A stretch of DNA of 64,000 nt from Halarcobacter sp. (GCA_048571215.1 CP182352.1:2528001-2592000); one strand, 5' to 3'; shown: positions 19,604 to 38,885, counted from the stretch's first letter. A program made the numbers and translations. Notes: generated from the sequence alone by a model not told the origin.

Positions 19604-21217
19604 ATGAAAAACATTACAACTAATAAACTTATATTATTTACATCAATTTATATGACGTTATTTTATAACTACACATTTTTTAAAAATATTATAAAGGTTT
19701 ATGGTTTTGAAAATTACAATATTTTGTATATTGCATCAACAGCTTTAGTACTATTTGCTTTAATTGTATTTTTATTTAGTATAGTAAGTAGTAGATTTAC
19801 AACAAAACCTTTGTTGATCTTAGTCTTATTTATCTCTTCATTTGCATCCTATTTCATGGATACCTACAATACCATAATAGATAGTGAGATGATAAGAAAT
19901 GTTGTTCAAACCAATATAAATGAATCTATGGACTTAATTAGTATGAAGTTAGTTTTATATATTTTATTATTGGGTGTTTTACCTTCTATTTTTATTTATA
20001 AAACAAAAATAGAGTATGGAACTTTTAAACAAGAGTTATTTTCAAAACTAAAAATACTAAGTTTATCTTTGATTATTATAGTTATTATGCTTTTATCATT
20101 TAGCAGATTTTATTCTTCATTTTTTAGGGAACATAAACCTTTAAGATACCATGTAAATCCTATTTATTGGATTTATAGTATTAGTAAATATATAAACTCA
20201 AGTGTCAATTCTGGACCTATTGTAGTAAAACCTATAGGTAAAGATGCAAAAATTATTCCCGATAAGAATGGCAAAGAAGATGAAAAAACAGAACTAGTTA
20301 TAATGGTTGTAGGTGAAGCAGCAAGAGCAGATAGATTCTCTTTAAATGGTTATGAAAAAGAGACAAACCCTCTTCTAAAAAAAGAAGATATTATTAACTT
20401 TCCAAATATGTATTCATGTGGTACTGCTACAGCTCAATCAGTTCCTTGCATGTTTTCTATTTATGATAGAAGTGATTATGATTATAAAAAAGGAATCTCA
20501 ACAGAAAATGTTGTTGATGTTTTAAAGCATACAAATTTTATAAATATCTTATGGAGAGATAATAACTCTGATTCAAAAGGGGTTGCTTTAAGGGTTGAAT
20601 TTGAAGATTATAGAACATCAAAAACTAATACTATATGTGATGATGTTGAGTGTAGAGATGAGGGAATGTTAGTTGGACTTGATGAGTATATAAAAAAACA
20701 TAAGGGTGAAGATATTTTAATTGTGCTTCATCAAATGGGAAATCATGGTCCAGCCTATTACAAAAGATATCCAAAATCTTTTGAAAAATTTACCCCGGTA
20801 TGTAAAACAAACCAATTAGAACAATGTACAAAAGAGGAAGTAAGCAATGCCTATGATAATGCTATTTTGTATACTGATTATTTTTTATCAAAGGTTATTA
20901 ACTTTTTAAAACCCTATTCAAAAGATTATGAAACTGCAATGATTTATATGAGTGATCATGGGGAAAGTTTAGGTGAAAATGGTTTTTACCTTCATGGTAT
21001 ACCTTATATTATTGCACCAAATGAACAAAAACACATAGGCTCAATAATGTGGTTTGGAGAAGATATAAAAGAAGATATAGATACAAAAAAACTATCTACA
21101 TATAAAAATAATGAGTTTTCACAAGATAATCTTTTCCATACTCTTTTAGGAATTTTTGAAGTTGATAGTAAAGTATATGACAAAGATAAGGATATATTAT
21201 TTAATGCACAAAAGTAA
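19604..21217 (+). CDS. eptA: Phosphoethanolamine--lipid A transferase (EptA/MCR family)
   Basis: N-terminal TM domain; VVGEAARAD, SCGTATAQSVPCMFS, HQMGNHGP and SDHGESLGE motifs. Confidence 0.92.
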   Translation: MKNITTNKLILFTSIYMTLFYNYTFFKNIIKVYGFENYNILYIASTALVLFALIVFLFSIVSSRFTTKPLLILVLFISSFASYFMDTYNTIIDSEMIRNVVQTNINESMDLISMKLVLYILLLGVLPSIFIYKTKIEYGTFKQELFSKLKILSLSLIIIVIMLLSFSRFYSSFFREHKPLRYHVNPIYWIYSISKYINSSVNSGPIVVKPIGKDAKIIPDKNGKEDEKTELVIMVVGEAARADRFSLNGYEKETNPLLKKEDIINFPNMYSCGTATAQSVPCMFSIYDRSDYDYKKGISTENVVDVLKHTNFINILWRDNNSDSKGVALRVEFEDYRTSKTNTICDDVECRDEGMLVGLDEYIKKHKGEDILIVLHQMGNHGPAYYKRYPKSFEKFTPVCKTNQLEQCTKEEVSNAYDNAILYTDYFLSKVINFLKPYSKDYETAMIYMSDHGESLGENGFYLHGIPYIIAPNEQKHIGSIMWFGEDIKEDIDTKKLSTYKNNEFSQDNLFHTLLGIFEVDSKVYDKDKDILFNAQK

Positions 21218-25381: not shown

Positions 25382-25762
25382 ATGATTCATAAAAATAATA
25401 AATTATGGATGACAATAATGAATAAGTTCTTAGAAAATGCAAAAAAAATTGAAGTGGAAAATAGTAGTGTAGACTTTTTTGAGTTTGAAAAAGATGGACT
25501 CACATATTATTATTTTGATAGTTCTATAACTACTCCACCTCATCCAATGGTTAATGCAATGTTAGGATTAAAACTGCTTGATAATCCAAAAAAAAGACTT
25601 TTAATGAGAAATCATCAAAAACCAATGGGACTTTTCCCTAAAATAAAAGAAAATTTTGAATATGAAATTTTAGAAGAGGATGAAGATATTTTAATTGAAT
25701 TTAAATATAAACAAGGAACAACTTTAAATGTAGATTTTAATGATAGCAATTGCCAAGGTTAA
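25382..25762 (+). CDS. Conserved hypothetical protein (possibly DUF2249/TusA-like); its 3' end is the island's left direct repeat
   Basis: FD...PPHPMVNAM and NHQKPMGLFPKI motifs; true start may be 25418. Confidence 0.6.
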   Translation: MIHKNNKLWMTIMNKFLENAKKIEVENSSVDFFEFEKDGLTYYYFDSSITTPPHPMVNAMLGLKLLDNPKKRLLMRNHQKPMGLFPKIKENFEYEILEEDEDILIEFKYKQGTTLNVDFNDSNCQG

Positions 25763-25783
25763 TCCTTTAAGCTATCAAGTTTT
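25637..25783 (+). repeat. Left 147-bp direct repeat
   Basis: cctaaaataaaagaaaatttt...ggttaatcctttaagctatcaagtttt matches 33022-33168 except for one T/C. Confidence 0.95.
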
Positions 25784-25819
25784 TTTATAGATAATTTTTA
25801 GTATAATTTTTTAAAATTT

Positions 25820-25852
25820 GTGGTTTTTTAAGGTGGCAACTGACTCCTAATT
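25820..25852 (+). repeat. Cassette junction site 1 (type A)
   Basis: gtggttttttaaggtggcaactgactcctaatt. Confidence 0.85.
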
Positions 25853-25857
25853 TTTCT

Positions 25858-25904
25858 AATTTCCGCCCGTAATTTCCGCCCGGATTTTCTATTTTCTATT
25901 TTCT
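25858..25904 (+). repeat. Short tandem stutter repeats next to site 1
   Basis: aatttccgcccg x2 followed by attttct x3. Confidence 0.85.
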
Positions 25905-25917
25905 ATTTTTTATTTTT

Positions 25918-26262
25918 CTATTTTTTCGATGTTTTTACATAATATACAATATTTAATATTTGTAATGTTGAGATACTTAGAATTATAAAATAATACTTAT
26001 CTAAACTATAACTACATTCAACATTAACATATAAAAAAAATATATTCAATAATATAGCAATTACTAAAATCAATAATGAAATAACTATATATTTAGTATT
26101 TTTCACTAATTTATCCTCAAAAAAATAAGATGCGAAAAACATTCCACCACCAATAAAGGACAACTCTTTAATATTATTATCGTATAAAAAAACAAGAATA
26201 AAACAATTTATTGCTACAACTTTAAATAAGCATACTAAAACATAATTTAAAACTATTTTCAT
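25918..26262 (-). CDS. Cassette 1 putative immunity protein (about 4 TM)
   Basis: Hydrophobic 114-aa ORF with ATGA overlap to the upstream toxin-CT stop. Confidence 0.6.
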   Translation of the reverse strand: MKIVLNYVLVCLFKVVAINCFILVFLYDNNIKELSFIGGGMFFASYFFEDKLVKNTKYIVISLLILVIAILLNIFFLYVNVECSYSLDKYYFIILSISTLQILNIVYYVKTSKK

Positions 26263-26813
26263 GGAGATATATACTCTTGAGTCTGCTTCATTGCTTCATT
26301 ACTAAGATAGCCTGCAGTATCACTTATTTTATGAAAACCTATAGTTGTTGACACATCTCTTGTAAAATCAACCCAATTTGTCTCACCTATTGAGAATAAT
26401 GTTAAATGTTTTAATCCTGTAAATACTGTTGATGCAGTGTAAGGAATAACACTAACTAATCTCATAAATTTATTACTACTCATCATCAAACCTAGCCTAG
26501 CACTTTTTTCAGCCATACTGTCAAGTCTATTAGCTGTAAATCGCATATCCTCTTTTACATTTCTGTATTTTCCATGTAGTGCATATTCTTGTAAAGATTC
26601 ATTAGTATGCATCGCATGATTAAACAAATGCACAAAAGCCCCAGTAACAGTACCATTTGCAAACTTACCACCACTTATTTCTGAAACAGTACCACCAATT
26701 ACTGCCATTATCATTGTTCTTCCTTCAACACCACCATAGTCTTTATTACCAACACTAAAACCACTTGAAGCAAACCCACTCCAAAATCCTGCGCTAAATC
26801 TTCCACCTTGTGC
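26259..26813 (-). pseudogene. Cassette 1 orphan polymorphic-toxin C-terminal fragment
   Basis: Frame open from AQGGRFSAGFWSGF through SEISGGKFANGTVTGAFVHLFN into a unique tail; no N-terminal part. Confidence 0.75.
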
Positions 26814-26884
26814 TTATATATAATTATATATATTACTTAGTTAAAAGCTATTGAAAGTGGAGATTCATCCTTAGGGGTGTTAGT
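26806..26884 (-). promoter_or_regulatory. 79-bp repeated promoter-like segment, copy 1 (copy 2 at 29815-29893)
   Basis: Two copies with 1 mismatch; TATAAT on the minus strand pointing into the cassette. Confidence 0.55.
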
Positions 26885-26938
26885 TTGGTGTTAGTTTCTT
26901 GCCATCACCTATCCTTAGTTTTAATAAGGATAATTAAA

Positions 26939-26970
26939 GGTTTTTTAAGGTGGCGACTGTCCCCTTTATT
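26939..26970 (+). repeat. Cassette junction site 2 (type A)
   Basis: ggttttttaaggtggcgactgtcccctttatt. Confidence 0.9.
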
Positions 26971-27009
26971 TCAAGCTGGGGCTTGGGAACGAGGGAAACT
27001 TACTTAACT

Positions 27010-27297
27010 TTATTTAATGTCCATATTTCCTTTAAAAATAAACATTATTGTTACAATACATAATAAAACTAAGGAGAAATTTTGAATCTCATTTGCATAT
27101 GGATAATTGTCAGAAAAAATATATATATAAAAAACTCCTCCTCCCCAAAAATTTCCATAAATAAATGCACTAAAAAGAACTAATCCTATAGTAGGAAGTC
27201 TATATAAAAACTTTTTATCTTTAAAATAAGATAAAAGTTTATAGTTTATTAAAAGAGAAAAAATACCTATTATGATATATATTAATAGCTTAGTCAT
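27010..27297 (-). CDS. Cassette 2 putative immunity protein (membrane)
   Basis: Hydrophobic 95-aa ORF whose start overlaps the toxin-CT stop. Confidence 0.6.
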   Translation of the reverse strand: MTKLLIYIIIGIFSLLINYKLLSYFKDKKFLYRLPTIGLVLFSAFIYGNFWGGGVFYIYIFSDNYPYANEIQNFSLVLLCIVTIMFIFKGNMDIK

Positions 27298-27847
27298 TTA
27301 ATGTTTTACCTGACAAACCTGTTTCTAATAATAAAGCACCTTTTCCAGCACTTGTTGAATATTTATAAGTTGGAATCGCTATTTCAGCTTTTCCTGGAAA
27401 ATACTTTGAGATTGTTTTAATACCTGTTCTTAATAAGTTAGGTGCTGCTCCTATGGCAGAAACTCCTACTTCAATATATTTATAATAGCCTTTTCCAAAT
27501 TTATCATCGTAAAATTCATGTAACAAACCTATTTTACCTGTGTAACCTTCATATATATTGTTACTTCCATGTGCAATTAATGCCAATCCAGCAGGAGCTC
27601 CCCAGCCAGTCAATGTAAGCCCTGTATCCGCAATAACCTGTAAACCTCCTGCAAACATATTAATAATACCTTCCGCATTAAACAAATGCACAAAAGCCCC
27701 AGTAACAGCACCATTAGCAAACTTTCCACCACTTATTTCTGAAACAGTACCTGATACAAAAGATGTAAACATAGTTCCCTTTCCTACTCCCCAACTACTT
27801 GATGCTACAAATCCAGAAACTGCAAATCCAGACCAAAATCCTGCACT
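27290..27847 (-). pseudogene. Cassette 2 orphan toxin C-terminal fragment
   Basis: SAGFWSGF...SGTVSEISGGKFANGAVTGAFVHLFN followed by a Gly-rich hydrophobic tail with LIAHGSNNIYEG. Confidence 0.75.
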
Positions 27848-27852
27848 CCATT

Positions 27853-27896
27853 GATAAAGGTGCCTGTCCCCTTTATTGTTATTTGTCCCCTTTATT
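27853..27896 (+). repeat. Cassette junction site 3 (type B) with partial duplication
   Basis: gataaaggtgcctgtcccctttatt followed by a second tgtcccctttatt at 27884-27896. Confidence 0.9.
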
Positions 27897-27928
27897 CTAG
27901 TATTATCGTTCTTCTAGTATTTTTGTAT

Positions 27929-28393
27929 TTATTCCACCTTTATAATTTCACTAGTTTTACAAAATTCTTTTATTGACTTTTTTTCTCTTTTTTTATTTAA
28001 TTCATTAAATGAAATTAAATAAGGATACTTATATACATTTATTTTTTCAATAAATCCTTTTTTTAGAGTAATCTTTTCTTTTTTTATATAACAACTATCT
28101 ATATTTATGTTTAATTTTAAATTTCTAATTCGAAATTTATATTCATCAATAGACTTAACTTTCTTGATAGTGTATAATATACTCTCTTGTTTAAAATTAC
28201 TTAAAAATATAAAAGATTCAATGAAATTATTATTAAAATTTTGACTCAAGTTTGAATTTAAATTCCTAAATAAAAAAGGTTTTTCTATAGTAAAGTTATC
28301 TATTTTTACATTTTTACTATCAAAAAAACCAACCTTAAAAATAATAAAAATAATTATAAATATTAGAATAATTATATAAAAATACTTTCTCAT
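27929..28393 (-). CDS. Cassette 3 putative immunity protein (N-terminal TM anchor)
   Basis: 154-aa ORF starting 1 nt after the stop of a short upstream tail. Confidence 0.5.
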   Translation of the reverse strand: MRKYFYIIILIFIIIFIIFKVGFFDSKNVKIDNFTIEKPFLFRNLNSNLSQNFNNNFIESFIFLSNFKQESILYTIKKVKSIDEYKFRIRNLKLNINIDSCYIKKEKITLKKGFIEKINVYKYPYLISFNELNKKREKKSIKEFCKTSEIIKVE

Positions 28394-28394
28394 A

Positions 28395-28490
28395 TTACTT
28401 TTCCTTATATAAGAAATTTAATTCTATTTTTTTTCTTCTTGCGTATTCAGTTATTACACTATTCATTGCATTATCATAGTCATTCATCAT
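28395..28490 (-). pseudogene. Cassette 3 short toxin C-terminal remnant
   Basis: MMNDYDNAMNSVITEYARRKKIELNFLYKEK* ends immediately before the next ATG; called by position only. Confidence 0.35.
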
Positions 28491-28613
28491 CTTATCAATT
28501 ATTACCCTCTCTTTATTCTAAAGATGAAAGTGATTAGATGTCACTTTTTCTATATTTTAATATTCACTTTTTTATTGAAAAAAGTAAAACAAAAAGGCAT
28601 TCCTTTCAAAATT

Positions 28614-28669
28614 GTTTTTTAAGGTGGCGACTGACCCCTAATTTGAAGGTGAAAACTGACCCTATTTTT
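28614..28669 (+). repeat. Cassette junction site 4 (type A) plus degenerate second copy
   Basis: gttttttaaggtggcgactgacccctaatt followed by gaaggtgaaaactgaccctattttt. Confidence 0.88.
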
Positions 28670-28793
28670 GTCTTCTTAAAAACTTAATAAATAATAATAT
28701 CATAATCAACAAAAAGAATATAAAGGAATAAAAATATTCTCCTGTACTTATTTCATTTGATAAAATAAAAAATCCATAAATTTTTGAAAACAT
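28662..28793 (-). CDS. Cassette 4 putative 43-aa membrane immunity peptide (not in ORF track)
   Basis: MFSKIYGFLFLSNEISTGEYFYSFIFFLLIMILLFIKFLRRQK*; GGA RBS; starts 14 nt after the toxin-CT stop. Confidence 0.55.
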   Translation of the reverse strand: MFSKIYGFFILSNEISTGEYFYSFIFFLLIMILLFIKFLRRQK

Positions 28794-28807
28794 ATTTATC
28801 CAATTTT

Positions 28808-29305
28808 TTATTGTCTATTTTTTCTATTATCATAATAATCAATTGCTCCTTTTATCATTCCATATCCTATTGCAGGAATTTTAAAAAACTTTGATGCTAA
28901 GTTAATATTATCAGTATAGACATCAACTGTTTCACCTATGTTTTTACCTGCGTTGAAACCATCATACCCACCCTTAACTACGGAACATACAAAGCTTTCA
29001 ATACATGGAGCCTTAGGTCTCAAAATATAAGATGCATTATGTCCAGTATCTTTTAAACTTGCAGTATCAACTGTAGTAATATAATATCCATCTTTCCCTG
29101 TTCCGTCATTAACAACTGTCATATTTAATCCTTTAGCACGCAACTCTGCTACTTGCTGCTCCGCCTCATGCTTCAAATAATTAAACAAATGCACAAAAGT
29201 CCCAGTAACAGCACCATTTGGAAACTTACCACCACTTATTTCTGAAACAGTACCTGATACTAAAGATGTAAACATAGTTCCCTTTTCTACTCCCCAACTA
29301 CTTGG
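28808..29305 (-). pseudogene. Cassette 4 orphan toxin C-terminal fragment
   Basis: SSWGVEKGTMFTSLVSGTVSEISGGKFPNGAVTGTFVHLFN (near-identical DNA to the cassette 2 arm) plus a different tail. Confidence 0.75.
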
Positions 29306-29386
29306 TACATATATCTTATATCCACTTTTCCCATATATAATTTTTTTGATAATTATATCATATGTTTTATTTCTTTTATTGTTATA

Positions 29387-29416
29387 TTTTTTTAAAAGGC
29401 GACTGTCCCCTTTATT
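29387..29416 (+). repeat. Cassette junction site 5 (variant)
   Basis: tttttttaaaaggcgactgtcccctttatt. Confidence 0.85.
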
Positions 29417-29656
29417 TTATTTTAGGAATTTTTTATATATTAAATAGCATATATACAAAAAAAATCCAAATCCAAAAAGTATATTTGTAATAGCTGAACT
29501 TTCAGATAAAATAATCATTCCATCTGTTTTAGAAATTACTTTATTCCCAAAATATGCATAAATACCAAAATAAAAAAAATAACCTAATGCTAATAGTATT
29601 AATAATAAATACCCACCATATCTAAAGATAAAAAATGTAAAATTATTTTTCATCAA
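29417..29656 (-). CDS. Cassette 5 putative immunity protein (membrane), paralog of 29953-30192
   Basis: GIYAYFGNKVISKTDGMIILSESSAITNI aligns with GIYSLMGNKVILKSQGMVYLSEKSAITNI. Confidence 0.65.
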   Translation of the reverse strand: MMKNNFTFFIFRYGGYLLLILLALGYFFYFGIYAYFGNKVISKTDGMIILSESSAITNILFGFGFFLYICYLIYKKFLK

Positions 29657-29822
29657 ATGTTCCTTTTATTTTATCTATTAAATTAAATGCAGCACCATGT
29701 GGGGTAGATGGAGGCATACTACTATTAAATACATCATTACCTACTTCTGCAATATAAGGAATAGCAACATATTCATATTTTACTAACAATCTAGTCAAAG
29801 TATATGCTAATCCTCCTTGTGC
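29643..29822 (-). pseudogene. Cassette 5 toxin C-terminal remnant (not in ORF track)
   Basis: AQGGLAYTL...EVGNDVFNSSMPPSTPHGAAFNLIDKIKGTFDEK*, homologous to the cassette 6 tail EVVNDIFNESMPPVTPHGAAINII. Confidence 0.7.
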
Positions 29823-29893
29823 TTATATATAATTATATATATTACTTAGTTAAAAGCTATTGAAAGTGGAGATTCATCCTCAGGGGTGTTAGT
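29815..29893 (-). promoter_or_regulatory. 79-bp repeated promoter-like segment, copy 2
   Basis: Matches 26806-26884 with 1 mismatch. Confidence 0.55.
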
Positions 29894-29895
29894 CT

Positions 29896-29938
29896 GTGGT
29901 TTTTTAAGGTGGCAACTGACCCTTAATTTCCTTAATTT
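29896..29938 (+). repeat. Cassette junction site 6 (type A) with 9-bp stutter
   Basis: gtggttttttaaggtggcaactgacccttaattt followed by a second ccttaattt. Confidence 0.9.
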
Positions 29939-29952
29939 CTTTATTTTAATTT

Positions 29953-30192
29953 TTAATTTTTCTTATATTGATCCTTGAAATAAATAAATAAAATTATTAT
30001 TACTCCTATAATTATATTTGTAATTGCTGATTTTTCTGATAAATAAACCATTCCTTGACTTTTAAGAATTACTTTATTACCCATTAATGAATATATACCA
30101 AAATATCCTATAAAGATACCACCAAAGATACAACTTAATATAAAATTGGAATATTTATCTGATAATAGTAATTCTAAAAACCATTTTTTCAT
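29953..30192 (-). CDS. Cassette 6 putative immunity protein (membrane)
   Basis: 79-aa hydrophobic ORF with ATGA overlap to the toxin-CT. Confidence 0.65.
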   Translation of the reverse strand: MKKWFLELLLSDKYSNFILSCIFGGIFIGYFGIYSLMGNKVILKSQGMVYLSEKSAITNIIIGVIIILFIYFKDQYKKN

Positions 30193-30740
30193 TTTTTTGA
30201 ATTCCTTATATTATTTATAATATTTATTGCAGCACCATGTGGTGTAACAGGTGGCATACTTTCGTTAAAAATATCATTTACTACTTCAACTGTATAAAGT
30301 TTACCTGCAAATCCTTGCGTTTTGAAAATCATAATTACTCCTCTTGCAATCCTTACCGAAGGTAGTGCTAATGCAACATTAAGAGCTAAATATTTATCCT
30401 TAGAACCATGTACTCTTAATTCAGAGACATATCTATATCCACCACCAAGATCAACATAGTAACCATTCTCTCTTTCAATGGGATTTACAATTTTTCCTTT
30501 TCGACCTGTTGATTCAAGATACTTCAAATCTTTTTCAGCCTCATGCAACTTATAATTAAACAAATAAGTAAAAGCCCCCTTAACTGCACCATTAGCAAAT
30601 TTGCCACCAGAAATAACAGAAACTGTTCCTGATAAAACTCCACTTACCATTGCTTGAATTGCTTCATGTGCTTTTCCTAAATATTTTCCAACTATAGGAG
30701 CAAAAAAGGAACTTGCAAAACCAGACCAAAAACCTGAACT
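30189..30740 (-). pseudogene. Cassette 6 orphan toxin C-terminal fragment
   Basis: SSGFWSGF...SGTVSVISGGKFANGAVKGAFTYLFN plus variable tail. Confidence 0.75.
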
Positions 30741-30745
30741 CTATC

Positions 30746-30770
30746 GATAAAAGTGCCTGTCCCCTTTATT
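30746..30770 (+). repeat. Cassette junction site 7 (type B)
   Basis: gataaaagtgcctgtcccctttatt. Confidence 0.9.
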
Positions 30771-30774
30771 TTTA

Positions 30775-31089
30775 TTATCTTTCATCAGGAAATTTTTCAA
30801 AATATTTTTCAAAATCAATTGTTTTTATATCACATTTAGGACACATACCTTTTTCTAAAGTAGAATAAGTATATGTCTCTTTACATTTTGGGCATTTTGA
30901 ATATTCAATTTTTTGTTTTATTCTTTTTGCTAAAAAATAAATAAAAATGGCAGAAAATACCCATAGTAAAGACTCTATATTCGAAACCTTATGCCAATGT
31001 CGGACATAAACCTCTCCATAAAACAAACCTAGAATACCTTCAATAAAATTTACTATTGAAATTAAATATAAACTATTCTTTAAATTCAT
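30775..31089 (-). CDS. Cassette 7 putative immunity protein (2 TM plus CxxC...CxxC zinc ribbon)
   Basis: TAATG coupling to the toxin-CT; KCPKC...MCPKC motif. Confidence 0.6.
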   Translation of the reverse strand: MNLKNSLYLISIVNFIEGILGLFYGEVYVRHWHKVSNIESLLWVFSAIFIYFLAKRIKQKIEYSKCPKCKETYTYSTLEKGMCPKCDIKTIDFEKYFEKFPDER

Positions 31090-31451
31090 TATTCATTACT
31101 TTTTAAAAATTCTACTAATGACTTTCTATTATCATACATATTATAAATTTTTCCAAAACTAGTATCAGCAGGCATACTAGAATTTACAACATCATTAGTG
31201 AAATTAACTACAGCTATAGCTTCAAGTGGTCTAGTGTAAAATAATGTCTTCACAAAATTATATGCCTTTACTATAGGAACAAACAAAGTTATTACACCTA
31301 TTGCAGTTAAATCTCCATGTGAATTTATTTTTCTTTCACCTACTGGATTTTCTGCGGCATATCCTATTGAATTATTTAAAACTTTCGCATCATTTGCTGT
31401 TTGAAGATATTTATAAGATGCATTAAACAAATGCACAAAAGCTCCCGTGAC
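31089..31451 (-). pseudogene. Cassette 7 orphan toxin C-terminal fragment
   Basis: Begins at VTGAFVHLFN directly fused to an inverted junction site; tail contains NDVVNSSMP. Confidence 0.7.
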
Positions 31452-31464
31452 AGACACCTTTACT
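31447..31464 (-). repeat. Junction site 8 (type B, inverted)
   Basis: Reads agtaaaggtgtctgtcac on the minus strand. Confidence 0.65.
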
Positions 31465-31465
31465 C

Positions 31466-32215
31466 CTACTCCCCACTAATTATACTTTGATTAATCACAC
31501 CAACCATAGCTTTTATAAGCAAACTATTATCTTTTTTTATTGGTTCAAACTCTTTTTCTGTTATATTCTCGATATCATTAGGTACTTCAAATCCTACTTT
31601 TTCATTAATTGATGATAAACCTGAAAGATAAACCATATTGAATGTTGGAAAATTCTTATACTTTATTTCTCCTAAAGGATTTAACAAATACATTTTTGCA
31701 TCAACACCCAAAACAGAAAAATATTTTTTAAATCCAATAAAATGATGAGATACCAAACCTGAACCCTTATTTGTATAGAGAAAAGGATGAAGATATAGGC
31801 TAACATTCGAATCATTTATTACTATAACCGCTTTTAATTTTAAATCATTTACAAGCTTATCATAAATATTTTGTTTGTTTATAATCCATTCTTTTTCATT
31901 TGCTATTATTAGATTATTTAATGACTCTAAGCTAATGTTTTCTTGATCTAAATTAACTAATTTAACATTTATTTGACTTTTTAGTTCTTCTTCAATTTGT
32001 TCTTTAATTTTCCAATCATAACTATAACTTTTTTCAAAATTATTAAATACTGTTGTTCCCAAATGATTATGTTCAATATTTTTATTTTTTATATCAACTA
32101 AATAACCAATTCTATCAGAATTTAGAACTTTATACTTTGGAATATCAGGTCTAGTTACCACACAACCAGTAAATATAATAAAACATAAAAACATTAGAAA
32201 TATACTTCTTTTCAT
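31466..32215 (-). CDS. Lipoprotein of unknown function (island passenger)
   Basis: Signal peptide ending in lipobox IFTG-C; aagga RBS. Confidence 0.75.
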   Translation of the reverse strand: MKRSIFLMFLCFIIFTGCVVTRPDIPKYKVLNSDRIGYLVDIKNKNIEHNHLGTTVFNNFEKSYSYDWKIKEQIEEELKSQINVKLVNLDQENISLESLNNLIIANEKEWIINKQNIYDKLVNDLKLKAVIVINDSNVSLYLHPFLYTNKGSGLVSHHFIGFKKYFSVLGVDAKMYLLNPLGEIKYKNFPTFNMVYLSGLSSINEKVGFEVPNDIENITEKEFEPIKKDNSLLIKAMVGVINQSIISGE

Positions 32216-32240
32216 TCTCTTCCTTTATTTAATAGCTAAA

Positions 32241-32275
32241 ATAAAAGGGGACATAAAAGGGGACAGGCACCTTTT
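32241..32275 (-). repeat. Junction site 9 (type B, inverted) upstream of the transposase, with 12-bp stutter
   Basis: ataaaaggggac ataaaaggggacaggcacctttt. Confidence 0.9.
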
Positions 32276-32377
32276 TTATTTTTCTATTATCTAAAATTCA
32301 ATATGAAACAAATTTAGTTTAATAATATATTAAATTATATAAATATACTATTATAATAAACTTTCTAAAGATTTATT

Positions 32378-33146
32378 ATGCCAAGAATTGCTAGAAATTT
32401 AGCTGATGAACAAATTTATCATATTATAAATAGAGGTAATAGAAGAGATACTATATTTCATGATAGTTTTGATTATGAAAGATTTTTAAAACTTCTTTTA
32501 GATGCTAAGGTTAAATATCAAATCAAAATTTTTGCTTATTGTTTAATGCCTAATCATTATCATCTTGTTATATATACTCCCATTGGAGAAAATCTATCAC
32601 TAGCTATGCATTTTATTAATTCTAGTTTTGTAAGGTATTATAATAAAAAGTACAAATTATCTGGTCATCTATGGCAAGGTAGATACAAAAGTTTTATTGT
32701 ACAAAAGGAAGAGTATTTATTAACACTATTAAGATATGTAGAAGCAAATCCTCTAAGAGCTAAGATAGTTAAGGATTGTATAGATTATAAATATTCATCT
32801 GCAAATAAAAGGGTTAACAACATAAACAATCCAATACTTGATGATATACCAATTATACTACCTAATAATTGGCACAATTTTATTAATGACAATGAAAAAA
32901 AATTGATTTAGATTACATAAGAAATTCAATAGAAAGACAATCTCCTTTAGGAGATGAAAACTGGCAATACATGATATGTAAAAGGTATGGTTTAGAATTT
33001 ACTATTAGACCAAGGGGAAGACCTAAAATAAAAGAAAATTTTGAATATGAAATTTTAGAAGAGGATGAAGATATTTTAATTGAATTTAAATATAAACAAG
33101 GAACAACTTTAAATGTAGATTTTAATGATAGCAATTGCCAAGGTTA
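32378..33146 (+). CDS. REP-associated tyrosine transposase (RAYT, Y1/HUH, IS200-like fold), frameshifted at an A8 tract; C-terminus fused to duplicated host sequence
   Basis: MPR, YHIINRGN, YCLMPNHYHL (HUH), LWQGRYKS, RYVEANPLRA (catalytic Tyr) and YKYSS motifs; ORF stops at 32911, and adding one A at 32895-32902 continues ...SPLGDENW...TIRPRGRPK. Confidence 0.88.
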
Positions 33147-33168
33147 ATCCTTCAAGCTATCAAGTTTT
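33022..33168 (+). repeat. Right 147-bp direct repeat
   Basis: Copy of 25637-25783. Confidence 0.95.
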
Positions 33169-34196
33169 CCTTGAATAAATTTTTTTACTACCTTATAATC
33201 AATAGTTTCTCTAAAATCTTCAAAATAACATCCACTAGCATTTGGATGTCCTCCACCATTTGCTAGTTTTTGGGCTATTAAAGATACATCAACTTTTCCA
33301 TCTGCTCTAAAGGAAGTACTACCTTTTTTCCCAACATCGATAAAAAAATCATAATCCTTATTCTCTTGTAAAAAAGCATTTGCAGGGATAGAAATAGAAC
33401 CTAAAGTATAAGTTAATAATCCCTTGTGACCTTTATAAATCACTGTTAAATCATCTTTTAATTTTTCCAAAGATTTCACTAGGTATTTAGCACTAAGATT
33501 ATCAATTGTGTCGTCTACTCCATCTTGATTTAAAAACTCTTTTTTTAATCTATGGATATCGTTATCAAGTTTGATGTTTCCATTTTCCAAGTGTACATAT
33601 AAAGATGCTTTTTTCAATAAATATAATCTAAAATCTCTATTTAAATCTGCAAATAAGATATTATTTACTTCCCTTACACGACTAACCATACTCAATAAAA
33701 CTTTTCCAAATTCAAAGTTTTTGACTTGATCATCAAGCCATATATCAATGGCATTAACAGAGTCAATTAAAGGTTTCAACCAAGAGCTAGTTTGGCAATC
33801 AAAACCTTCATAATCCTCAAACATATAATCATATGTGATTTTAGCTGCACATCTTGTAGTATCTAAATAATACCAATCATACTTCAAAGCACTTTTTTCA
33901 CCTGTAGCATGATGATCTAAAAGCTGAAGCTTAATATCATAACCCTCTTCTTTTAATTTATTAATATTGTTATTTAAATCTTTTGATTCATTTATAGTAA
34001 GGTTCAAGTCAGTAATTAAAAAAAATATCTCTTTACCCTTATACTCTTTTATAGACTCTAATATTTTTTTTAAGTTCTGTTTTACTTCAAGACCATAGTT
34101 TGCATTATAAAAAGATCCCTCTTTAAAAAACTCTTTTGTGATAAGTTGACAACTATATCCATCTAAATCAGTATGAGATAAATGAAAAAACTTCAT
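33144..34196 (-). CDS. DHH-family phosphoesterase (nanoRNase B-like)
   Basis: SHTDLDG, ITDL, LLDHH and GGGHPNASG motifs. Confidence 0.88.
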   Translation of the reverse strand: MKFFHLSHTDLDGYSCQLITKEFFKEGSFYNANYGLEVKQNLKKILESIKEYKGKEIFFLITDLNLTINESKDLNNNINKLKEEGYDIKLQLLDHHATGEKSALKYDWYYLDTTRCAAKITYDYMFEDYEGFDCQTSSWLKPLIDSVNAIDIWLDDQVKNFEFGKVLLSMVSRVREVNNILFADLNRDFRLYLLKKASLYVHLENGNIKLDNDIHRLKKEFLNQDGVDDTIDNLSAKYLVKSLEKLKDDLTVIYKGHKGLLTYTLGSISIPANAFLQENKDYDFFIDVGKKGSTSFRADGKVDVSLIAQKLANGGGHPNASGCYFEDFRETIDYKVVKKFIQGKLDSLKD

Positions 34197-37555: not shown

Positions 37556-38885
37556 GAGACCGTTCAAAAATCTGTGTCAAGTCACCTAAAGTAACAAATC
37601 CATACTTGTTACAACTCTAAATAATTATCCAATCTCCCTTCGAAAAATATAGCAAGTTGGGAGATTGTTAAACTCCAATTATGCACTGGCTGAGTCCATT
37701 TTACTTTTGCATTTAATATTCCCATATACAACAATTTTAAAAGTGAATTCTCATTAGGGAAAGCTCCTTTTGTTTTGGTTAATTTTCTAAATTGCCTATG
37801 TACAGATTCAATAATATTTGTAGTGTACATAATCTTTCTTATCTCTTTTGGATATTTAAAATAATAAGATAAATTCTCCCATTTATTTTGCCAAGATTGA
37901 AGTACTATGGGATATCTTTTCCCCCATTTTTCATCTAGTTTTAAAAGCTCATCTTCTGCAAGTTCTTTTGTTGTTGCTTGATAAACAAGTTTTAAATCTC
38001 TCATAAACTCTTTTTGGTCTTTAGAAGCTACATACTTCAATGAATTACGAATTTGATGTACAACACAAAGTTGTACTTCGGTATTTGGATATATTGTTTT
38101 AATAGCTTCAGGAAAGCCTTTAAGACCATCTACTGATGCAATTAGTATATCTTCTAATCCTCTATTATTTAAATCAGTAAGAACACTAAGCCAGAAGTTT
38201 GCTCCTTCACTTTGGGATAAATATAATCCTAATATATCTTTTTTACCATCAATTCCCATCCCTAAAACTGTGTAAACTGCTTTACTCACATACTTCCCAC
38301 CATCTTTTATTTTATAATGTATCGCATCAAGCCATACAAATGGATAAATAGCTTCTAAAGGTCTACTTTGCCAAGCTTTTACCTTATCTATAATTTTATC
38401 TGTAATAGTGCTTATTGTTGCACTTGATAATTGTATTTGATATATCTCTTCAATATGTTTTATAATATCTCTATAGCTTAATCCTAAGCCATACATAGAT
38501 AATATCTTTTCTTCTATTTCATTAGACATTGTTGTTTGGTTTTTCTTTACAAGTTGTGGTTCAAAAGAACCTGTTCTATCTCTTGGAGTATTCAATTCAA
38601 AGGAACCACTTGTTGATTTTATTGTTTTAGAGCTTTTACCATTCTTTCTATTTTTATTTCCTGCAAATACATCTTGAGTTATATGAGAATCTAATTCTGC
38701 TTCTAAAGCAGCTTCAACTAATTGTTTTACTAATGGAGCAAGTACTCCATCTTTACCATTGATATTTTTACCTGCAAGTAAATCTTGTACAGCTTCATTA
38801 AAATCAAATTGTTTTTTCTTTTCCATCTATATCAATCCTTATAATATTTATTATATCAGACTGACACAGATTTTCTAACACTCCC
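37556..38885 (-). mobile_element. IS256-family insertion sequence, copy 1 (1330 bp)
   Basis: Imperfect IRs gagaccgttcaaaaatctgtgtca / gggagtgttagaaaatctgtgtca; 8-bp TSD ttttaacc at 37548-37555 and 38886-38893. Confidence 0.95.
37609..38826 (-). CDS. IS256-family transposase (intact)
   Basis: PRDR, WQSRPL...VWLDA, VDGLKGF, QLCVVHQIRN and TTNIIES motifs. Confidence 0.95.
   Translation of the reverse strand: MEKKKQFDFNEAVQDLLAGKNINGKDGVLAPLVKQLVEAALEAELDSHITQDVFAGNKNRKNGKSSKTIKSTSGSFELNTPRDRTGSFEPQLVKKNQTTMSNEIEEKILSMYGLGLSYRDIIKHIEEIYQIQLSSATISTITDKIIDKVKAWQSRPLEAIYPFVWLDAIHYKIKDGGKYVSKAVYTVLGMGIDGKKDILGLYLSQSEGANFWLSVLTDLNNRGLEDILIASVDGLKGFPEAIKTIYPNTEVQLCVVHQIRNSLKYVASKDQKEFMRDLKLVYQATTKELAEDELLKLDEKWGKRYPIVLQSWQNKWENLSYYFKYPKEIRKIMYTTNIIESVHRQFRKLTKTKGAFPNENSLLKLLYMGILNAKVKWTQPVHNWSLTISQLAIFFEGRLDNYLEL

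Follow-up and report, generated by a model that had tools for sequence, protein, structure and literature searches.

TIRtron-type terminal repeats at the junctions of orphan toxin/immunity modules in a Halarcobacter genome and its relatives

Introduction

How are the toxin tips and immunity genes of large secreted toxins first cut out of their parent genes and joined into arrays? The question is raised by an island in a 64,000-nucleotide (nt) stretch of a Halarcobacter sp. genome (GCA_048571215.1 CP182352.1:2528001-2592000; hereafter the window, in whose coordinates positions are given), where seven co-oriented minus-strand units at 25,918-31,475 are accompanied by a lipoprotein-like gene and a plus-strand gene for a Y1 transposase of the HUH type. 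An earlier note, made from the sequence alone, had read this arrangement as a candidate new system in which an enzyme of the RAYT type (a tyrosine transposase associated with REPs, or repetitive extragenic palindromes) captures and shuffles toxin/immunity cassettes at hairpin sites.

Here we report that the sites of the HUH enzyme are linked to the ends of toxin/immunity modules, both in this genome and in the family to which it belongs. By its sequence the resident enzyme appears to be a known TIRYT (TnpA-REP subclass 2.1), and its motif is the published terminal-repeat consensus, not a REP hairpin. TIRtrons and their TIRYT enzymes correspond to subclass 2.1 of TnpA-Y1 (Quentin et al. 2018, PMC6006769), and their terminal inverted repeats (TIRs) have the consensus GGGGWSAS (Di Nocera et al. 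2013, PMC3733652). What emerges is a real and unusually clear association between elements that were each known before. Its mechanism can be tested, but it does not yet amount to a new system; its new part is the so far unreported link of TIRs to toxin modules.

TIRs at toxin modules in the host genome and its relatives

Loci and genomes compared carry L- and G-numbers (G000 is the host genome, C1 its contig label), and relatives are genomes of the host's bacterial family. A TIR lies at most 350 nt upstream of all 9 detected truncated toxin genes (stubs) in the host genome and of 11 of 15 in relatives, compared with 11 of 653 background windows, in a census from which six duplicate loci were dropped and whose profile missed two units of the window. 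Within 1.5 kb, TIRs occur at 9 of 14 toxin loci, at 3 of 30 ParE loci (one of them also a toxin locus), and at none of 30 HsdS or 21 core loci. Among 151 family genomes, 43 carry a TIRYT and 14 the conserved linker that precedes the toxin tips, and a TIRYT is present in 10/14 linker genomes vs 33/137 others. The two lie within about 3 kb of each other in 6 of the 14 linker genomes. When TIRYT-centred loci were fetched before any toxin search, Rhs sequence was found within 4 kb in 6 of 20. Across phyla, the TIRYT profile finds a match in 11 of 75 toxin loci, against about 0.1 gene expected from the family-wide density; of these 11, one repeats a family locus and two belong to another type that has no Pfam match.

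Five loci (L032, L038, L050, L066 and L212) have a TIRtron end no more than about 25 nt from Rhs-derived DNA, at five different breakpoints. The junction is formed by an intact TIRtron in L032, L038 and L212, by a gene-less TIR pair in L050 and by a fused pair in L066; the three intact elements sit exactly at the truncation point, with no debris between. TIRs within 2 kb downstream of tips lie in the toxin's sense in 40 cases and in the opposite sense in 9 (duplicates included). One junction of the class C type (described below) precedes different tips in the host genome and in G020, and an immunity gene together with its site is common to different contexts at 97.6% over 378 nt. TIR-delimited cargo flanks the closest homologues, L033 and L035. 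At one shared site downstream of rpoC, two congeners differ in their TIR-bounded cargo and in their pieces of TIRYT (L035 in G134, L037 in G131).

Organisation of the island

Each of the seven units has one GGGGWCAG-type site, 6-70 nt past its last stop codon in the reading direction (six distances measured). An eighth, inverted site at 32,240-32,276 lies just upstream of the Y1 gene, where the earlier note had already recognised the same motif. That note had also described seven co-oriented cassettes, each of a toxin tail and a small gene; the seven units stand, but a conserved linker (GGKFANG-type or a remnant) and variable tip are found in five only. Unit 3 has the end of a tip alone (29,643-29,830), and unit 5 an immunity-like gene alone (27,929-28,393). 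The features of the island are listed below; roles in the list are predictions.

25,382-25,762, plus strand: host gene A (126 aa, hypothetical), with the left duplication copy as its 3' end
25,637-25,783: left copy of a 147-nt host duplication (ends of gene A and the DHH gene), from sequence comparison
25,824-25,851: site 7, TIR outer half joined to an IS110 right end (16/18 inner bases as in the intact IS110 right end)
25,918-26,262, minus strand: unit 7 immunity-like membrane gene, 114 aa, about 3 hydrophobic segments; role suggested by position
26,259-26,815, minus strand: unit 7 conserved pre-tip linker stub and toxin tip (linker match)
26,854-26,881: class C TIR (260-aa helix-turn-helix-type TIRYT family); inverted pairs flank intact genes in L032, L020 and L047
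26,896-26,948, minus strand: leader remnant with the initial codons of a third TIRYT family (matches the TIRYT start in L051 at 81% over 53 nt)
26,941-26,972: site 6, TIR outer half and IS110 right end (17/18 match)
27,010-27,297, minus strand: unit 6 immunity-like gene, 95 aa (40/88 identities with the gene that follows L066's full-length parent toxin)
27,290-27,853, minus strand: unit 6 linker stub and tip (tip 85/128 identical to the C-terminus of the 2,241-aa parent in L066)
27,856-27,877: site 5, TIR of the resident TIRYT type (shared inner half), joined directly to the unit 6 stub
27,929-28,393, minus strand: unit 5 immunity-like gene without a tip, 154 aa (50/152 identities with the gene that follows L067's parent toxin)
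28,615-28,642: site 4, TIR outer half and IS110 right end (16/18 match)
28,660-28,791, minus strand: unit 4 short hydrophobic open reading frame (ORF), about 43 aa, possibly an immunity gene, on a weak basis
28,808-29,306, minus strand: unit 4 short stub and toxin tip (sequence comparison)
29,394-29,416: site 3, hybrid TIR (12/18 to the IS110 end, 9/18 to the resident TIR)
29,417-29,653, minus strand: unit 3 immunity-like gene, paralogue of the unit 2 gene (30/65 identical)
29,643-29,830, minus strand: unit 3 tip, last part only, related to the unit 2 tip (repeat comparison)
29,863-29,890: second class C TIR (sequence match)
29,900-29,927: site 2, TIR outer half and IS110 right end (16/18 match)
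29,953-30,192, minus strand: unit 2 immunity-like gene, 79 aa; role suggested by arrangement
30,189-30,746, minus strand: unit 2 linker stub and toxin tip (linker match)
30,749-30,770: site 1, TIR of the resident TIRYT type (shared inner half), joined directly to the unit 2 stub
30,775-31,089, minus strand: unit 1 immunity-like gene, 104 aa, membrane part and CxxC pairs; paralogues end the genome's other two loci of the same toxin family
31,089-31,475, minus strand: unit 1 tip with internally shortened stub; 5' junction without a TIR (from the sequence)
31,466-32,215, minus strand: predicted lipoprotein, 249 aa; no Pfam family, atlas neighbours named lipoprotein or hypothetical at 0.95
32,240-32,276, plus strand: left TIR of the resident TIRtron and partial outer repeat; GGGGACAGGCACC also flanks both sides of the TIRYT in L116
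32,378-32,911, plus strand: TIRYT (HUH/Y1, subclass 2.1 type; PF01797), HUH and catalytic Tyr kept, frame broken, 3' end fused to the duplication
33,022-33,168: right copy of the host duplication, 147 nt
33,144-34,196, minus strand: host DHH-family gene (domain match)

Elsewhere in the window, 19,604-21,217 holds a gene for a phosphoethanolamine transferase of the EptA type, and 37,609-38,826 a transposase of the IS256 family. The same IS256-family element also flanks a second array elsewhere in the genome.

The resident enzyme

The Y1 protein matches PF01797 (E 1e-18) and scores 78.2 bits against the RAYT model NF047646, below its cut-off of 80. Its invariant residues are kept, with H60 and H62 in the HUH motif and Y120, N124 and P125 in the tyrosine motif Y---NP. 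Near 32,900 the frame breaks and about 45 conserved C-terminal residues are lost; the C-terminal tail of the homologues continues in another frame past the early stop of the window ORF. The gene is the sole PF01797 gene in the host genome. What the earlier note had called a RAYT-type enzyme is a Y1 HUH protein, as it had seen, but of the known TIRYT kind, below the RAYT cut-off and with a broken frame.

Upstream of the gene an inward GGGGWSAS repeat is present at 32,259-32,266, while its inverted partner downstream is absent and the 3' end is fused to the host duplication. Because the close homologues L003, L004, L005 and L006 carry both repeats, the window TIRtron is a truncated member of this group. 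Among 80 related Y1 genes across phyla, the inward motif was found upstream of 48, downstream of 40 and on both sides of 34, and each TIRYT subfamily has its own TIR inner half. TIRtrons are mobile, since two 793-nt copies that are 97.5% identical occupy different sites in G128. Many TIRYT loci lie between housekeeping genes, usually just past a stop codon, and the TIR is faced by the 3' end of the upstream neighbour in 23 of 30 scored loci, at a median of 12 nt. Partial tandem copies of the TIR end stand on the outer side of many TIRs (window 32,240-32,258; L032:8720-8870; L212:3746-3768), which suggests repeated cutting or slippage there. Another Y1-like protein, of 322 aa and without a Pfam match, lies between Rhs modules in two Alteromonadales loci (L253:8715-10713 and L261:1901-2869); we take it to be of 'subclass 2.3'.

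Composite sites and their distribution

The earlier note had counted one copy of one motif per cassette. There is indeed one GGGGWCAG-type site each, but the sites are composites of three elements, and a single motif served by a single enzyme was therefore rejected. Sites 1 and 5 (2/7) share the inner half of the resident TIR, whereas sites 2, 4, 6 and 7 (4/7) agree in 16-17 of 18 bases with the right end of an intact IS110, an insertion sequence (IS); site 3 is a hybrid. Sites 2, 4, 6 and 7 are thus IS110 right ends inserted into TIRs. Two spacers hold a TIR of the 260-aa TIRYT family (class C) and one the start of a third TIRYT family, so that at least three TIRtron families and one IS have left ends in the island. 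A 91-nt repeat (D8), tried as the 3' end of the TIRYT, was rejected and is mainly a class C TIR.

The IS110 has the DEDD and Transposase_20 domains (PF01548 and PF02371 in L088 and L106), and both of its junctions are visible in L293 (2329-3890, G048), where the intact element splits a TIR at a CAG/CT core; the observation also covers L292 (G091). The leader of the L293-type element contains GAGGGACAG, a 9-nt stretch that matches the TIR; in an IS110 that has a different target, this position is taken by GTAAAGAAG. By analogy with the elements described in PMC11208160, we read this stretch as a possible bridge-RNA guide.

Folding does not bear out the hairpins that the earlier note had placed at the sites. 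Eight sites in 16 folds gave -0.4 to -4.9 kcal/mol, with z <= -2 in four folds from three sites, and hairpin sites were rejected for most copies. Near site 6, a short GC-rich stretch at 26,973-26,993, with similar stretches near units in L073 and L207, presumably resembles half of a REP-like palindrome.

The 3.6-Mb genome holds 24 sites of the two main types (class A/B), and four toxin loci with a combined length of 16 kb account for 16 of these; two shuffled genomes gave one such site each. Outside toxin loci lie 8/24 class A/B sites and 20/26 class C sites. Replication strand shows no bias (class A 8 vs 7, class C 14 vs 12; class B, at 7 vs 2, is too few). About 20 class C TIRs stand outside toxin loci, at C1:1,706-1,722 kb (L374), 958-964 kb, 385-390 kb and 1,804 kb, many of them just after accessory genes and beside a dispersed element of about 340 nt that is itself struck by IS110. 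These clusters look like a more general TIR-bounded gene array.

The same kinds of site occur at a five-unit array (C1:807-812 kb) and a single unit (C1:2,377 kb), neither with an adjoining Y1 gene, and also at C1:3,395-3,404 kb, where a teneurin-like Rhs gene is accompanied by a single orphan. An integron integrase above the TIGR02249 cut-off is encoded at C1:895,245-896,189 (L082), 1.66 Mb from the window array, and no tyrosine recombinase is found at the head of that array.

The toxin/immunity cargo

Full-length proteins that match the linker are 2,220-2,300 aa long and contain FG-GAP and RHS repeats, and the units are orphan tips and immunity-like genes of this secreted toxin family of about 2,250 aa. 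Tip and downstream gene can be found still joined to a parent, as for the unit 6 pair in L066. Three parent toxins used as queries matched the host genome in linker and tips alone, besides weak matches to an unrelated Rhs gene; the genome therefore lacks a parent toxin, and none heads the window array. Gene arrangement suggests the toxin and immunity roles of the units. Neither Pfam nor NCBIfam yielded a match at cut-off for any tip or small gene, and an atlas comparison of the unit 6 tip yielded no usable family (best 0.90, unnamed).

Five FG-GAP/RHS loci (L042, L062, L067, L069 and L073) adjoin a type II secretion pseudopilin gene, assigned by a T2SSG match in L042 and by sequence likeness in the other four, which may hint at the route of toxin export. 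In four loci (L066, L067, L265 and L266) the parent's immunity gene is followed by several small genes in a row, of 100-117 aa, whose starts resemble signal peptides; some of them are separated by TIRs.

Insertion into host DNA

The island is enclosed by the 147-nt duplication (25,637-25,783 and 33,022-33,168), whose copies differ by one mismatch. Gene A has homologues in 23 of 25 genomes of the genus, and the DHH gene directly follows gene A in 7 of 21 homologous loci, which represent the empty site in relatives. The assembly across 29,857-33,051 is matched by contigs of two sequencing runs, possibly from the same source. An RNA run from another study gave two contigs of note: one of 722 nt spans the left junction, and one of 253 nt begins to match at 32,254 and not before. 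Both are single and of low depth, and we take them as no more than a hint. Run X4, which has single-letter gaps at many places, was left out. Joints within run contigs were rejected as evidence of circles, because their sides are short or the joints come from the second array.

Origin of the arrays

With moderate confidence, we propose that TIRtrons make the founding joints and that homologous recombination then stacks the modules. One TIRtron would land just past an immunity gene, and another would land in, or join its end to, the conserved stretch before a tip, giving the order TIR, stub, tip and immunity gene. Recombination between stubs or between element copies would then insert an incoming tip and push the old tip and immunity gene downstream, in a C-terminal displacement of the RecA type, and the same junction would thereby be copied in front of new tips. 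The elements would later decay to single TIRs, some of them overwritten by the TIR-targeting IS110. The window array would have become separated from its parent toxin and inserted between two host genes in an imprecise event that also cut the TIRYT short, and for this reason it is now likely to be an immunity store. We infer both steps; the recombination step is supported by the class C junction that precedes different tips and by the immunity gene shared together with its site.

Several observations weigh against this account. Rhs lies near only 4 of 80 TIRYT loci across phyla when scored with hidden Markov models, which replaced a loose regular expression that had given 12 of 80. Outside the family, a TIR accompanies 1 of 26 stubs and, among 21 core-bearing orphans, again just one, and because such stubs and orphans almost never carry one, arrays evidently form without TIRs; inside it, 1 of 6 core-bearing orphans has a TIR. 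Arrays in Bacteroidota and in one Sulfurimonas are TIR-free. Both island ends meet host DNA away from any TIR end, and a lone tip/immunity/TIRYT unit in G017 and G037 (at a site that is empty in 5/5 congeners) likewise has no TIR at its ends. The relatives are not independent, three of the six positive genomes coming from one genus, and the TIR search patterns were partly derived from the toxin loci themselves. No tip has a Pfam family, and the data, contigs that are blind to rare forms, revealed neither circles nor gain or loss between strains, nor any activity of the enzyme.

A dedicated, integron-like system would have the HUH enzyme cut single-stranded GGGGWCAG and excise or insert whole tip/immunity cassettes, much as the earlier note had envisaged. 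The single site per unit and its constant orientation invite this idea, as do the TIR-delimited cargo at L033 and L035, the shared immunity gene that ends at its own site, and the fused outer halves GGGGACTGTTCCCC in L066, which resemble an excision footprint. We nevertheless judge it unlikely. Of the seven sites, four are junctions with IS110 and another is hybrid; breakpoints in the toxin genes vary, hairpins are weak and the genome's sole Y1 gene is broken. Moreover, the enzymes adjacent to Rhs are polyphyletic and come from many separate lineages: in a quick tree of 112 enzymes, the 18 adjacent to Rhs need 12 changes, 9 of them forced by well-supported branches. Transposons seeding junctions would therefore fit better than a dedicated cassette recombinase, because the sites are a published TIR, more than half of them are overwritten by IS110, the gene is broken, the enzymes are of many lineages and arrays outside the family are TIR-poor.

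Alternatively, homologous recombination alone may have built the arrays, with TIRtrons gathering passively in silent, AT-rich DNA after stop codons and adjacent deletions trimming the stubs later. The general stop-codon bias of TIRtrons, the polyphyletic enzymes, the TIR-free arrays of other taxa and the sites outside toxin loci in the host genome all agree with such a passive hotspot, and IS elements are known to interrupt CDI (contact-dependent growth inhibition) orphans (PMC3150448). That TIRs are rare at the other accessory loci, ParE and HsdS, that the truncation points in L032, L038 and L212 coincide exactly with intact TIRtrons, and that TIRs downstream of tips favour the toxin's sense make it less probable than the account proposed above. 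An IS110 bridge recombinase might also be the assembler, with TIRs as landing sites and adjacent modules carried along or rearranged. The splitting of a TIR by the L293 element, the contrast between GAGGGACAG and GTAAAGAAG in the leaders and the IS110 right end kept at four window sites speak for it; yet the junctions in L032, L038, L050, L066 and L212 contain no IS110 sequence, the host genome keeps only a fragment of the TIR-targeting element, and IS110 elements are already known to target the repeats of other elements (PMC11208160). We regard this as quite improbable.

Beyond the founding joints proposed above, TIRYTs may tentatively be seen as general single-strand module shufflers that join TIRs to toxin genes and move tip/immunity units between repeats. 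If true, HUH enzymes would drive a route by which immunity arrays are acquired and toxins diversify, and subclass 2.1 enzymes would have their first host function.

Significance

The first cutting out and joining of an orphan toxin module has been left open since the C-terminal displacement model (PMC2935791). The present loci point to a candidate enzyme together with its sites, and they supply several independent junctions. They make both this question and that of the function of subclass 2.1 HUH enzymes directly testable. After the prochlorosins, this is a second case of subclass 2.1 beside antagonism genes with a constant front and a variable tip. An IS110 whose leader matches the TIR that it invades emerged as a by-product.

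Comparison with known systems

The earlier note knew of no described system with this combination of enzyme and cargo. In the literature covered, from which subscription papers mostly fall outside, no paper was found that links TIRYT or RAYT to Rhs modules, although the TIRtron lists of PMC3733652 may bear on the point; TIRYT and its motif, by contrast, were already published. One paper that names both RAYT/TIRYT and Rhs treats them separately, in the portion considered (10.1101/2024.07.17.603846). The window island shares with TIRtrons the Y1 HUH gene, the GGGGWSAS inverted repeats, the solo and clustered TIRs and the absence of REP hairpins. It differs in that its TIRs are linked to toxin/immunity cassettes, the word 'Rhs' occurring 0 times in the main texts of PMC3733652 and PMC6006769, and in that its own copy is broken and one-ended. 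Unlike classical RAYT/REP systems, with their GTAG-tagged, stable, high-copy hairpins, it has weakly folding sites, 24 of class A/B in the genome, and an enzyme below the NF047646 cut-off.

Rhs C-terminal displacement, in the parts of its description considered here, involves homologous recombination only and leaves the origin of the first circle open (Jackson et al. 2009, PMC2935791). As in Rhs and CDI orphans (PMC2935791; Poole et al. 2011, PMC3150448), stub, tip and immunity gene form a co-oriented string, and a tip that one genome carries on a parent is found orphaned in another. Transposon ends at the junctions and the lack of a parent in the genome set the present case apart from the displacement model.

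Some IS110-family elements have REPs, attC sites or Tn21 TIRs as their targets (PMC11208160 and titles that it cites). The element described here resembles them in placing a DEDD recombinase gene at a short core inside the repeat of another element, with a matching leader stretch; a TIRtron repeat as the target is a difference, for which no report was found in these sources.

TnpA-REP of subclass 2.1 has been described beside prochlorosin precursor genes, with a diversifying role proposed from genomes alone (Laurenceau et al., 10.1101/2020.03.09.984088). The same enzyme subclass there adjoins genes with a constant front and a variable tip, as here; inverted repeats are lacking in that case, diversity arises from indels, and the authors later saw no strong evidence for or against causation. 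Finally, the arrays recall rAID-1 (10.1101/471110) and integrons in their co-oriented immunity genes, repeated intergenic sites and adjoining recombinase-type gene. In rAID-1, as far as its description was considered, that gene encodes a tyrosine recombinase of the XerD family confined to the array, whereas the enzyme here is of the HUH type, polyphyletic and found mostly elsewhere.

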